DNA from: Escherichia coli
Lineage (GTDB): Bacteria; Pseudomonadota; Gammaproteobacteria; Enterobacterales; Enterobacteriaceae
Assembly (NCBI RefSeq): GCF_050920415.1
Contig: NZ_CP169309.1
Strand: one strand, 5' to 3'
Length of the DNA stretch: 64,000 nucleotides
In this document: positions 28,075-49,175 of the stretch, one piece after another
Numbering within the stretch: position 1 is the stretch's first letter
Layout: every line of letters begins with the position of its first letter
The notes under the pieces: model-generated
Seen by the model: the letters and a program-made list of their open reading frames with translations, nothing else
What the model was told of the DNA's origin: nothing
Database searches by the model: none
Program-made: the position numbers and the translations under genes

Positions 28075-28175
28075 TACTGATCGCCTGATGCGACGCTTAC
28101 GCGTCTTATCAGGCCTACGAGCCGATGCCATTTTGTGTAGGCCGGATAAGGCGTTCACGCCGCATCCGGCATGTC
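28075..28175. repeat. REP (repetitive extragenic palindromic) elements between glpK and glpX
   Basis: gcctgatgcgacgcttacgcgtcttatcaggcctac and gccggataaggcgttcacgccgcatccggc are typical REP units. Confidence 0.8.
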
Positions 28176-28277
28176 GTAGACTCTGAAATCGTGCGGGGGC
28201 AACCCCCGCACACATCAATAATCCCGCCCTTCCCCTGTGCTACACTTCGCGCCATTCCTTACTGCTTAGAGTTTGCT

Positions 28278-29288
28278 ATGAGACGAGAACTTGCCATCGA
28301 ATTTTCCCGCGTCACCGAATCTGCGGCGCTGGCTGGCTACAAATGGTTAGGACGCGGCGATAAAAACACCGCGGACGGCGCGGCGGTTAACGCCATGCGT
28401 ATTATGCTCAACCAGGTCAACATTGACGGCACCATCGTCATTGGTGAAGGTGAAATCGACGAAGCACCGATGCTCTACATTGGTGAAAAAGTCGGTACCG
28501 GTCGCGGTGATGCGGTAGATATTGCTGTTGATCCGATTGAAGGCACGCGCATGACGGCGATGGGCCAGGCTAACGCGCTGGCGGTGCTGGCAGTAGGCGA
28601 TAAAGGCTGCTTCCTCAACGCGCCAGATATGTATATGGAGAAGCTGATCGTCGGACCGGGAGCCAAAGGCACCATTGATCTGAACCTGCCGCTGGCGGAT
28701 AACCTGCGCAATGTTGCGGCGGCGCTCGGCAAACCGTTGAGCGAACTGACGGTAACGATTCTGGCAAAACCGCGCCACGATGCCGTTATCGCAGAAATGC
28801 AGCAACTCGGCGTGCGCGTATTTGCTATTCCGGATGGCGATGTGGCAGCCTCAATTCTCACCTGTATGCCAGACAGCGAAGTTGACGTGCTGTACGGTAT
28901 TGGTGGCGCGCCGGAAGGCGTGGTTTCTGCGGCGGTGATCCGCGCATTAGATGGCGACATGAATGGTCGTCTGCTGGCACGTCATGACGTCAAAGGCGAC
29001 AACGAAGAAAATCGCCGCATTGGCGAGCAGGAGCTGGCGCGCTGCAAAGCGATGGGCATCGAAGCGGGTAAAGTGTTGCGTCTGGGCGATATGGCGCGCA
29101 GCGACAACGTCATCTTTTCTGCCACTGGCATCACCAAAGGTGATCTGCTGGAAGGTATTAGCCGCAAAGGCAATATCGCCACCACCGAAACACTGCTGAT
29201 CCGCGGTAAATCACGCACCATTCGTCGCATTCAATCCATCCACTATCTGGATCGTAAAGACCCGGAAATGCAGGTGCACATTCTCTGA
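28278..29288 (+). CDS. glpX: fructose-1,6-bisphosphatase class II
   Basis: Recognised start MRRELAIEFSRVTESAALAGYKWLGRGDKNTADGAAVNAMR... (336 aa) at the internal ATG 28278. Confidence 0.96.
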   Translation: MRRELAIEFSRVTESAALAGYKWLGRGDKNTADGAAVNAMRIMLNQVNIDGTIVIGEGEIDEAPMLYIGEKVGTGRGDAVDIAVDPIEGTRMTAMGQANALAVLAVGDKGCFLNAPDMYMEKLIVGPGAKGTIDLNLPLADNLRNVAAALGKPLSELTVTILAKPRHDAVIAEMQQLGVRVFAIPDGDVAASILTCMPDSEVDVLYGIGGAPEGVVSAAVIRALDGDMNGRLLARHDVKGDNEENRRIGEQELARCKAMGIEAGKVLRLGDMARSDNVIFSATGITKGDLLEGISRKGNIATTETLLIRGKSRTIRRIQSIHYLDRKDPEMQVHIL

Positions 29289-29384
29289 GTGATTTGATCG
29301 ATTGAGCCTTCCAGTCCTTCGGGACTGGAATTTTTTTGTTCGGAGAACGAAGATAAGGCAAGTCAATCAAAACAGGAGAAAAAC

Positions 29385-30131
29385 ATGGCTGATTGGGTAA
29401 CAGGCAAAGTCACTAAAGTGCAGAACTGGACCGACGCCCTGTTTAGTCTCACCGTTCACGCTCCCGTGCTTCCATTTACTGCCGGGCAATTCACCAAACT
29501 AGGCCTTGAAATTGACGGCGAACGCGTCCAGCGTGCCTATTCCTACGTTAACTCTCCTGATAATCCCGATCTGGAGTTTTACCTGGTGACCGTGCCCGAT
29601 GGAAAATTAAGCCCACGATTAGCGGCACTGAAACCGGGCGATGAAGTACAGGTGGTTAGCGAAGCAGCTGGCTTCTTTGTGCTGGATGAGGTCCCTGACT
29701 GCGAAACACTGTGGATGCTGGCAACCGGTACAGCGATTGGCCCTTATTTATCAATTCTGCAACTGGGCAAAGATTTAGATCGCTTCAAAAATCTGGTTCT
29801 GGTTCACGCCGCACGTTATGCCGCCGACTTAAGTTATCTGCCACTGATGCAAGAACTGGAAAAACGCTACGAAGGGAAACTGCGCATTCAGACGGTGGTC
29901 AGTCGGGAAACGGCGGCGGGTTCGCTCACCGGGCGAATACCGGCGTTAATTGAAAGTGGTGAACTGGAAAGTGCGGTGGGCTTGCCGATGGATAAAGAAA
30001 CCAGCCATGTGATGCTGTGCGGCAATCCACAGATGGTTCGCGATACGCAACAGTTGCTAAAAGAAACCCGGCAGATGACGAAACATTTACGTCGTCGACC
30101 GGGCCATATGACAGCGGAGCATTACTGGTAA
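29385..30131 (+). CDS. fpr: ferredoxin/flavodoxin-NADP+ reductase
   Basis: 248-aa ORF MADWVTGKVTKVQNWTDALFSLTVHAPVLPFTAGQFTKLG... recognised as Fpr. Confidence 0.96.
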   Translation: MADWVTGKVTKVQNWTDALFSLTVHAPVLPFTAGQFTKLGLEIDGERVQRAYSYVNSPDNPDLEFYLVTVPDGKLSPRLAALKPGDEVQVVSEAAGFFVLDEVPDCETLWMLATGTAIGPYLSILQLGKDLDRFKNLVLVHAARYAADLSYLPLMQELEKRYEGKLRIQTVVSRETAAGSLTGRIPALIESGELESAVGLPMDKETSHVMLCGNPQMVRDTQQLLKETRQMTKHLRRRPGHMTAEHYW

Positions 30132-30135
30132 GCGG

Positions 30136-46283: not shown

Positions 46284-46299
46284 TGTGAACATCATCACG
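46284..46299. promoter_or_regulatory. CRP site in the rhaSR / rhaBAD divergent control region
   Basis: TGTGAacatcaTCACG matches the CRP consensus. CRP activation of the rha promoters is established. Confidence 0.5.
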
Positions 46300-46407
46300 T
46301 TCATCTTTCCCTAGTTGCCAATGGCCCATTTTCCTGTCAGTAACGAGAAGGTCGCGAATTCAGGCGCTTTTTAGACTGGTCGTAATGAAATTCAGCAGGA
46401 TCACATT

Positions 46408-47877
46408 ATGACCTTTCGCAATTGTGTCGCCGTCGATCTCGGCGCATCCAGTGGGCGCGTGATGCTGGCGCGTTACGAGTGTGAATGCCGCAGCCTGACG
46501 CTGCGCGAAATCCATCGTTTTAACAATGGCCTGCATAGCCAGAACGGTTATGTCACCTGGGATGTGGATAGCCTGGAAAGTGCCATTCGCCTTGGATTAA
46601 ACAAGGTGTGCGAGCAAGGGATTCGTATCGATAGCATTGGGATTGATACCTGGGGCGTGGACTTTGTGCTGCTCGACCTACAGGGTAAGCGTGTGGGTCT
46701 GCCCGTTGCTTATCGCGATAGCCGCACCCATGGTCTGATGACGCAGGCACAACAGCAACTCGGCAAACGCGATATTTATCAGCGTAGCGGCATACAATTT
46801 CTACCCTTCAATACGCTTTATCAGTTGCGTGCGCTGACGGAGCAACAACCTGAGCTTATTCCACACATTGCTCACGCTCTGCTGATGCCGGATTACTTCA
46901 GTTATCGCCTGACCGGCAAGATGAACTGGGAATATACCAACGCCACCACCACGCAACTGGTCAATATCAATAGCGACGACTGGGACGAAACGCTACTGGC
47001 GTGGAGCGGGGCCAACAAAGCCTGGTTTGGTCGCCCGACACATCCGGGTAATGTCATTGGTCACTGGATTTGCCCGCAAGGTAATGCAATTCCTGTCGTC
47101 GCCGTTGCCAGCCATGATACCGCCAGCGCGGTTATCGCCTCGCCGTTAAACGGTTCCCGCGCTGCGTATCTCTCTTCTGGCACCTGGTCATTGATGGGCT
47201 TCGAAAGCCAGACACCATTCACCAATGACACAGCGCTGGCAGCCAACATCACCAATGAAGGCGGGGCGGAAGGTCGCTATCGGGTGCTGAAAAATATTAT
47301 GGGCTTATGGCTGCTTCAGCGGGTGCTTCAGGAGCGGAAAATCAACGATCTTCCGGCGCTTATCGCCGCGACACAGGCACTGCCGGCTTGCCGCTTCACC
47401 ATCAATCCCAATGACGATCGCTTTATTAATCCTGACGAGATGTGCAGCGAAATTCAGGCTGCGTGTCGGGAAACGGCGCAACCAATCCCGGAAAGTGATG
47501 CTGAACTGGCGCGCTGTATTTTCGACAGTCTGGCGCTGCTGTATGCCGATGTGTTGCATGAGCTGGCGCAACTGCGCGGTGAAGATTTCTCACAACTGCA
47601 TATTGTCGGCGGTGGCTGCCAGAACGCGCTGCTCAACCAGTTATGTGCTGATGCCTGCGGTATTCGGGTGATCGCCGGGCCTGTTGAAGCCTCGACGCTC
47701 GGCAATATCGGCATCCAGTTAATGACGTTGGATGAACTCAACAATGTGGATGATTTCCGTCAGGTCGTCAGCACCACCGCGAATCTGACCACCTTTACCC
47801 CTAATCCTGACAGTGAAATTGCCCACTATGTGGCGCAGATTCACTCTACACGACAGACAAAGGAGCTTTGCGCATGA
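46408..47877 (+). CDS. rhaB: rhamnulokinase
   Basis: 489-aa [50 protein letters not shown]... recognised as RhaB. Confidence 0.96.
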
Positions 47878-49133
47878 CCACTCAACTGGAACAGGCCTGG
47901 GAGCTGGCGAAACAGCGTTTCGCGGCGGTGGGGATTGATGTCGAGGAGGCGCTGCGCCAACTTGATCGTTTACCCGTTTCAATGCACTGCTGGCAGGGCG
48001 ATGATGTTTCCGGTTTTGAAAACCCGGAAGGTTCGCTGACCGGTGGGATTCAGGCTACTGGCAATTATCCGGGCAAAGCGCGTAATGCCAGCGAGCTACG
48101 TGCCGATCTGGAACAAGCTATGCGGCTGATTCCGGGGCCGAAACGGCTTAATTTACATGCCATCTATCTGGAATCAGACACGCCAGTCGCGCGCGACCAA
48201 ATTAAACCAGAGCACTTCAAAAACTGGGTTGTATGGGCGAAAGCCAATCAGCTCGGTCTGGATTTTAACCCCTCCTGTTTTTCGCATCCGCTAAGCGCCG
48301 ATGGCTTTACGCTTTCCCATGCCGACGACAGCATTCGCCAGTTCTGGATTGATCACTGCAAAGCCAGCCGCCGTGTTTCAGCCTATTTTGGCGAGCAACT
48401 CGGCACACCGTCGGTGATGAACATCTGGATCCCGGATGGCATGAAAGATATCACCGTTGACCGTCTCGCCCCGCGCCAGCGTTTACTGGCAGCACTGGAT
48501 GAGGTGATCAGCGAGAAGCTGGATCCGGCGCACCATATCGACGCCGTTGAGAGCAAATTGTTTGGTATTGGCGCGGAGAGCTACACGGTTGGCTCCAATG
48601 AGTTTTACATGGGGTATGCCACCAGCCGCCAGACGGCGCTGTGCCTGGATGCCGGACATTTCCACCCAACTGAAGTGATTTCCGACAAGATTTCCGCCGC
48701 CATGCTGTATGTGCCGCAGTTGCTGCTGCACGTCAGCCGTCCGGTTCGCTGGGACAGCGATCACGTAGTGCTACTGGATGATGAAACTCAGGCGATTGCC
48801 AGTGAGATTGTTCGTCACGATCTGTTCGACCGGGTACATATCGGTCTCGATTTCTTTGATGCCTCTATCAACCGCATTGCCGCGTGGGTCATTGGTACAC
48901 GCAATATGAAAAAAGCCCTGCTGCGTGCGTTGCTGGAACCTACCGCTGAGCTGCGCAAGCTGGAAGCAGCTGGCGATTACACTGCGCGTCTGGCGCTACT
49001 GGAAGAGCAGAAATCGTTGCCGTGGCAGGCGGTGTGGGAAATGTATTGTCAGCGTCACGATACCCCAGCAGGTAGCGAATGGCTGGAGAGCGTGCGGGCT
49101 TATGAAAAAGAAATTTTGAGCCAGCGTGGGTAA
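47874..49133 (+). CDS. rhaA: L-rhamnose isomerase
   Basis: Recognised start [44 protein letters not shown]... (419 aa) at the internal ATG 47874, overlapping the rhaB stop. Confidence 0.96.
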
Positions 49134-49136
49134 ACA

Positions 49137-49175
49137 CTGCCGGATGCGGCGCGAGCGCCTTATCCGGCCTACGGG
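49137..49175. repeat. REP element between rhaA and rhaD
   Basis: gccggatgcggcgcgagcgccttatccggcctac. Confidence 0.75.

Follow-up and report, generated by a model that had tools for sequence, protein, structure and literature searches.

We searched a 64,000-nucleotide stretch of Escherichia coli DNA (contig NZ_CP169309.1, referred to here as the window) for repetitive extragenic palindromic (REP) elements. Seven palindromes between glpK and glpX, sbp and pfkA, cpxA and yiiM, and rhaA and rhaD are very probably canonical E. coli REPs, that is, palindromic units of the y, z1, and z2 types. They are arranged as one bacterial interspersed mosaic element of class 1 (BIME-1), two y/z2 pairs, and one solitary y unit, and their absence from the accessory DNA of the window is, at the same high confidence, uninformative. 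The elements are already known, and apart from their alleles nothing of substance sets them apart from the E. coli REP/BIME family. An initial annotation of positions 28075-49175 had placed typical REPs at these four junctions and had taken their absence from three accessory segments to support a different origin for those segments. Our analysis bears out the REP assignments but not the conclusion about origin.

REP units at four junctions

The RefSeq annotation copy of K-12 lists no REP features, so K-12 REPs were called by pattern and with the model described below. The K-12 copy of the region yielded 17 units, 11 of which are distinct. The 11 distinct units were aligned and combined with the known stem (12 base pairs) into a covariance model, R1, which is independent of the window. 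Running R1 over the whole 64-kb window with all filters off produced exactly seven full-length matches (45.9-61 bits, E-values from 7e-17 to 4.5e-12), and all seven lie at the four named junctions. The next score was 17.8 bits, from a decayed remnant 3' of sodA. Other low matches were reverse strands of the same palindromes or ordinary hairpins (13 bits or less). R1 thus found no REP in the 64 kb beyond glpK-glpX, pfkA-sbp, cpxA-yiiM, and rhaA-rhaD, and the seven matches are far beyond chance.

The seven units share the characteristics of the family. Each is an imperfect palindrome of 30-38 nt whose stem is individually visible in RNA folds. All 7 end in CTAC (GTAG on the other strand), and in every unit GATGCG on the 5' arm stands opposite CTTATC on the 3' arm, which constitutes the GC/TT stem mismatch. 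Alignment to the K-12 units and to the published consensus (PMC2817692, Table 1) assigned four units to the y type, one to z1, and two to z2. Short queries containing REPs matched a median of at least 34-40 places per genome across 5,425 genomes, and a 256-bp query with two REPs matched a median of at least 39 places per genome in 5,425 genomes; about 584-600 REP copies have been published for K-12 (PMC3333891). The units are not unique to their loci, so their identity as members of a dispersed REP family stands. The folds of the clusters are stable (z-scores of -2.4 to -6.8), and Rfam families derived from REPs match two of the four clusters. Consensus sequence, structure, GTAG foot, and copy number all agree with the description of these elements as typical REPs. 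The likeness to E. coli REP/BIME elements (Bachellier/Gilson nomenclature; Ton-Hoang et al. 2012, PMC3333891) extends to length, palindromic form, foot, mismatch, consensus, inverted pairing, the L linker at pfkA-sbp, extragenic position at gene 3' ends, high copy number, and a copy number at each locus that varies by strain.

All four clusters lie outside coding sequence, just 3' of a gene end. The distance from REP to stop codon is 5 nt for rhaA, 10 nt for yiiM (on the other strand), 11 nt for cpxA, 35 nt for glpK, and 55 nt for pfkA. Three of the junctions are tandem, one is convergent, and none is divergent; the published distribution of REPs is approximately 40% tandem, 60% convergent, and 1% divergent (preprint 10.64898/2026.03.23.713779). 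The initial annotation had described the junctions as convergent or operon-internal. This is accurate for glpK-glpX and rhaA-rhaD, which are operon-internal, and for the convergent cpxA/yiiM pair, but at sbp-pfkA the two genes stand in tandem and belong to separate transcription units, the sbp 5' region coming after the pfkA 3' end. A terminator scan reported no hairpin followed by a T-run in the four REP spacers, although it overlooked one that is readable in the sequence at about 35140-35165 on the minus strand, where a hairpin and then TTTTT lie downstream of the BIME-1.

The glpK-glpX cluster consists of a z2-type REP (28082-28118, plus strand; R1 score of 50.0 bits, E = 2.2e-13; running from its head to CTAC; CGCCTGATGCGACGCTTACGCGTCTTATCAGGCCTAC) and a y-type REP (28137-28171, minus strand; 58.5 bits, E = 4.4e-16). 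The two units are arranged tail-to-tail around an 18-nt linker (28119-28136) and form a single BIME-2-like doublet inside the glpFKX operon. A BIME-2 combines y and z2 REPs with a short S linker and s/l/r flanks, as a rule in tandem copies. Directly 3' of the glpK stop codon is a short hairpin made of two REP-head fragments (TATCAGGCA ... TGCCTGATA; 28048-28076), which has a 9-bp stem in the RNA fold. By its sequence, this hairpin is what remains of a head-to-head REP junction. The same fragment is found in O157:H7, and strain PE144 has only TGATTGCC before its z2 REP.

The pfkA-sbp cluster matches the definition of a BIME-1: y, a 35-nt L linker, and z1, in inverted orientation and in single copy, with a predicted binding site for integration host factor (IHF). 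The y unit (35188-35222, plus strand; 45.9 bits) lies in the pfkA 3' region, upstream of sbp, and carries three substitutions relative to K-12 (K-12 GCCGGATG...TTATCCGGC versus window GCCATATG...TTATACGGC). These replace GG with AT in the 5' arm and C with A in the 3' arm. One change is compensatory, turning a G-C pair into T-A, and the other leaves an A.C mismatch. The z1 unit (35258-35287, minus strand; 47.3 bits, E = 1.6e-12) is identical to the K-12 unit. Between them, the linker (35223-35257) contains the core TGCAAATTCAATAAATTGCA, which as read from the sequence has one mismatch to the IHF consensus WATCAANNNNTTR and is identical in the linker of the K-12 metJ-yiiX BIME-1. The L linker of BIME-1 elements frequently carries an IHF site (PMC3333891). 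Rfam family ES036 (RF02751) matches at 35224-35265 with 48.2 bits against a gathering score of 37.6, and this match is the BIME-1 L linker under another name.

At cpxA-yiiM, a y-type REP (40267-40300, minus strand; 45.9 bits) and a z2-type REP (40312-40349, plus strand; 54.4 bits) stand head-to-head across an 11-nt linker, as a single doublet between convergent genes. The pair folds at -57.4 kcal/mol on the plus strand (z = -6.8) and at -49.2 kcal/mol on the minus strand (z = -5.1). The rhaA-rhaD junction, inside the rhaBAD operon, holds a single y-type REP (49138-49172, plus strand; 61 bits, E = 7e-17).

REP absence and the origin of the accessory segments

We defined accessory segments as stretches without a counterpart in an alignment with K-12 MG1655. 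Three such segments, totaling 10.4 kb against 53.6 kb of core, are evidently those meant by the initial annotation. A1 (3067-10701, between metF and metL) contains three 5'-nucleotidase paralogues, a hypothetical gene, and a Tsx-like porin. A2 (23986-25004, between rraA and zapB) contains a hypothetical gene with an internal stop, and A3 (50366-52140, between rhaM and frvA) contains a carbohydrate porin. R1 detected no REP in A1, A2, or A3; the best match, within a coding region, scored 10.7 bits (E = 0.64). There was likewise no REP in the ATCC 25922 copy of A1, nor in the A2-like and A3 copies of three other strains. The reported absence is therefore correct, and a search with R1 for REP-like elements at similar density inside the segments found none.

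We compared this absence with expectation in several ways. By length, the core density of four clusters in 53.6 kb predicts 0.78 clusters in 10.4 kb of accessory DNA, and the probability of observing none is 0.46. Among junctions that include a gene 3' end, REPs are present at 4 of 26 in the core and at 0 of 8 in the accessory DNA (Fisher p = 0.55). Genome-wide in K-12, REPs are found between 207 of 704 convergent gene pairs and 146 of 2,597 tandem pairs (preprint 10.64898/2026.03.23.713779). At these rates, 1.16 clusters would be expected in the accessory DNA, with a probability of 0.26 for none. Equally REP-free stretches occur in the core, spanning 13.3 kb from metL to rraA and 11.9 kb from frvA to fdhE. 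The comparison of core and accessory REP density that the initial annotation had proposed thus yields zero in the accessory segments, but the difference is not significant. The absence of REPs from A1-A3 is real but fits what would be expected by chance, and it neither supports nor contradicts a foreign origin. It carries no evidential weight because the accessory DNA offers only 10.4 kb and eight eligible junctions, at approximately one cluster per 13 kb.

The segments are truly accessory, as established by their distribution and low GC content and not by REPs. Among 5,426 E. coli genomes, 658 (12%) have A1 in full and 1,844 in part; A2 is present in 672 (12%) and A3 in 2,544 (47%). Their GC contents are 0.43, 0.39, and 0.43, respectively, compared with 0.52 for the core. 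It is in this light that we weighed the alternative that REPs mark native E. coli DNA, so that their absence is evidence that the three segments came from elsewhere. The AT-rich, patchily distributed segments are REP-free both here and in the copies from other strains, as that alternative predicts. There is also precedent from Pseudomonas fluorescens Pf-5, in which REP-free regions were one criterion for islands and coincide with them (Paulsen et al. 2005, PMC7416659). Pf-5 carries 1,052 REPs across 7.07 Mb, with about 268 kb of prophage and island regions. The initial annotation follows the same logic, by which DNA acquired recently lacks a repeat specific to the species. According to one description, REP systems and their REP-associated tyrosine transposases (RAYTs) are inherited vertically and do not occur on plasmids (bioRxiv 10.1101/2021.07.10.451892).

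Our own data include points that weigh in the same direction and against our assessment. REPs seem to be depleted in mobile DNA: plasmids accounted for 149 of 194,820 places among the matches listed for one REP query, and the plasmid share was likewise small for a second query (149-158 of approximately 195,000-205,000 places among the matches listed). The direction of the argument from REP absence may therefore be right, but it cannot be shown from this window.

Several observations nonetheless make the native-marker explanation improbable as an account of what the window reveals. Only 0.8-1.2 clusters were expected in the segments, none of the three tests of their absence comes near significance (probabilities of 0.26-0.46, Fisher p of 0.55), longer core stretches are REP-free too, and REPs at core junctions come and go from strain to strain. 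With A3 found in 47% of genomes, K-12 may simply be a strain that lost it. Unlike in Pf-5, where about 268 kb were tested, the segments here measure 1-7.6 kb where clusters occur about once per 13 kb, which leaves no power. The heuristic is sound at genome scale and cannot be evaluated on 10 kb. The case for a foreign origin is built on distribution and GC content, and REP absence does not measurably strengthen it.

A1 also provided a case in which an accessory segment meets a REP site. The K-12 metL-metF spacer contains a decayed y REP (31 bits; K-12 4132347-4132381, positions 24347-24381 of locus copy L004), followed by an L-like AT-rich motif. A1 (7.6 kb) occupies the exact place of 194 bp of K-12 sequence that include this BIME remnant, such that the alleles of the junction are either remnant or island. 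This single case suggests that REP sites may serve as recombination points. The A1 genes at 3295-4850, 6337-9547, and 9625-10485 comprise the three paralogous metallophosphatase/5'-nucleotidase genes and the Tsx-like nucleoside channel. Of these, the first 5'-nucleotidase gene carries a frameshift, and the annotation of this strain records a missing C-terminus for the Tsx-like gene; ATCC 25922 has intact copies of them all.

Other readings of the palindromes and their genomic setting

The two-REP clusters, especially cpxA-yiiM, could instead be genes for nucleoid-associated noncoding RNAs (naRNAs) that bridge DNA via HU and compact the chromosome, although we judge this very unlikely. The cpxA-yiiM pair matches the Rfam naRNA4 family (RF02564) at 40270-40346 with 72.6 bits, above the gathering score of 59.5. 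Approximately 80% of REPs were reported to be transcribed, and naRNA4 from REP325, the BIME-2 array between yjdM and yjdN, to act with HU (mBio 2015, PMC4550694). However, any z2+y REP pair matches the Rfam model. The naRNAs are defined as z2+y pairs of REP325 (preprint 10.64898/2026.03.23.713779), and the match only restates that the cpxA-yiiM pair is a REP doublet. The same 2026 preprint reports no stable HU-naRNA4-DNA complex, no REP-REP contacts in Hi-C data, and no nucleoid change upon deletion or overexpression of REP325. In addition, REP325 has six doublets inside an operon, whereas cpxA-yiiM has one doublet between convergent genes, and what connects it to naRNAs is a sequence match. 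By analogy with REP325, the pair is probably an attenuator and stabilizer in the 3' untranslated region (3'-UTR).

We give practically no credence to the idea that the palindromes are ordinary gene-specific terminators or chance hairpins resembling REPs: they do form stable hairpins at gene 3' ends, and unrelated hairpins occur at other junctions (e.g., 33127-33149, 56990-57020, and 10620-10700), but the R1 scores and multi-copy distribution refute it, as 30-38 nt are common to K-12 REPs of other loci (E ≤ 4.5e-12), the GTAG foot is present, there are dozens of copies per genome, and no unit was followed by a T-run in the terminator scan.

Three elements elsewhere in the window resemble REPs. 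A decayed y-like remnant (GCTGATATGCGGCGTAAACGCCTCATTGCAGC; 42380-42412, plus strand) lies 3' of the sodA stop codon, outside the four clusters. It gave the local R1 match of 17.8 bits (E = 0.0037, at 42387-42406), has no GTAG foot, and is present in K-12 in a further diverged form. A fuzzy motif scan picked up two degenerate GTAGGCC arms arranged tail-to-tail at 3206-3241 in A1. We rejected this candidate, which scores 7 bits with R1. It is a unique hairpin (fold of -23.6 kcal/mol) 3' of the frameshifted 5'-nucleotidase pseudogene and is single-copy in each of the 1,831 genomes that have this portion of A1. The third, at 56990-57020 between the convergent genes frvR and yiiG, has a REP-head-like motif (CGGATGCG) but lacks the GTAG foot; with a score of 10.7 bits, it too was rejected as a REP. 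It is a perfect palindrome with an 11-bp stem, GTGTCGGATGCG CC GCATCCGACAC, and is probably either a terminator acting in both directions or what is left of a very old REP.

The window spans katG to fdhE and corresponds to K-12 positions 4,135,527 down to 4,081,105 in reverse orientation, by alignment with MG1655. Its gene order begins katG-metF ... metLB-metJ-yiiX-rpmE-priA-cytR-ftsN-hslVU-menA-rraA, continues through zapB-glpFKX-fpr ... tpiA-cdh-sbp-pfkA-fieF-cpxP-cpxRA-yiiM-kdgT-sodA-rhaT-rhaRS-rhaBADM, and ends with frvABXR-yiiG-fdhD-fdoGHI. The closest genome match is E. coli strain MFDS1022581 (NZ_CP169399.1), which is 99.991% identical over the whole window, with 5 mismatches and 1 gap. 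The 22-kb stretch around the four junctions has chromosome matches in 5,425 of 5,426 complete E. coli genomes. An apparent break in the fdoG open reading frame at 59870/59919 is explained by a selenocysteine UGA, since the Rfam SECIS_3 element (84.3 bits) matches there, at 59865-59923 inside the gene. Further expected Rfam matches were a ClpQY promoter element (20490-20547) and an L31 leader (15838-15890).

Strain variation and predicted roles of REPs at core junctions

REP occupancy of the core junctions is not fixed but polymorphic between strains. At rhaA-rhaD, K-12 has nine REPs in a clear BIME-2 array within a 450-bp spacer, and the window keeps one y unit. Strains 19KM1803 and CI5 also have one REP at this junction, O157:H7 LSU61 has three, and PE144 has five. 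We read these alleles in a six-genome sample; tandem copies align ambiguously, so coverage counts cannot separate single-REP from multi-REP alleles. In CI5, a GC-rich inverted repeat of approximately 160 bp, unrelated to REPs, lies beside the single y REP (arms CCCTCACCCC...GGGTGAGGGG; positions 34578-34779 of locus copy L008).

Other junctions vary as well. The two-REP allele of glpK-glpX is present in 447 of 5,426 genomes at a query coverage of at least 80%. K-12, 19KM1803, and CI5 have one decayed REP at this position, which in K-12 is of the y type, and PE144 has one z2 unit. The metJ-yiiX junction is empty in the window (14890-14949), versus two REPs in K-12, which has a 124-bp BIME-1 (z1, L, and y) there; this filled allele is found in 2,714 of 5,426 genomes (50%). 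The spacer in the window retains a simple GC hairpin with a T-run. In the strain sample, pfkA-sbp and cpxA-yiiM were the only junctions that did not vary. Variation between strains in the number of tandem BIMEs has already been published (PMC3333891).

Published work on the family provides a model for what these copies may do. On mRNA, REP hairpins would act as 3'-UTR elements that block 3'-to-5' decay of the upstream message, and they would attenuate read-through into the downstream gene, giving polarity in favor of glpK over glpX and of rhaA over rhaD. The cpxA-yiiM pair would serve the two convergent transcripts alike. For rhaA, cpxA, and yiiM, where the REP begins within 15 nt of the stop codon, it may also lower translation of the upstream gene, and the BIME-1 linker at pfkA-sbp would bind IHF. 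REP325 has been characterized as a partly Rho-dependent attenuator of its downstream gene and a stabilizer of the upstream mRNA; genome-wide, tandem pairs with REPs are biased toward upstream expression, and convergent pairs with REPs are more highly expressed (preprint 10.64898/2026.03.23.713779). REPs less than 16 nt from a stop codon can reduce translation of the gene upstream (Liang et al. 2015, cited in PMC12306157).

A single-copy RAYT transposase (TnpA-REP) would spread and maintain the family, recognizing the GTAG foot and the stem mismatch on single-stranded DNA. TnpA-REP binds and cleaves REPs on single-stranded DNA and needs both the GTAG foot and the GC/TT mismatch to do so (PMC3333891). 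The inverted doublets in the window resemble the proposed mobile unit of REPIN-RAYT systems (Bertels and Rainey; Nunvar et al. 2010, PMC2817692), which is likewise rare on plasmids and is served by a single-copy, vertically inherited RAYT. The rayT gene is not within the 64-kb window, and mobility of the window copies is suggested by their presence/absence polymorphism between strains.

Three considerations weigh against this functional model. Each of its statements about the copies in the window is drawn by analogy from published work on the family. The REP effects reported in the literature depend strongly on context, and the half-lives of REP-terminated mRNAs are not generally longer (preprint 10.64898/2026.03.23.713779). 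Finally, a match to the K-12 rayT gene occurs in only 3,575 of 5,426 E. coli genomes, always in one copy.

REP absence is unusable as a marker of origin for kilobase-sized E. coli segments, and otherwise that result matters little beyond correct annotation. The strain variation raises the tentative possibility that REP copy number at core junctions acts as a strain-specific expression dial and, as a related idea, that REP/BIME sites are preferred break or insertion points for accessory DNA. If the dial exists, the 3'-end behavior of rhaD, glpX, and yiiX/metJ would differ measurably from K-12 with coding sequences and promoters unchanged. The REP alleles at metJ-yiiX, glpK-glpX, pfkA-sbp, cpxA-yiiM, and rhaA-rhaD may offer natural experiments on how REPs tune the expression of their neighbors.

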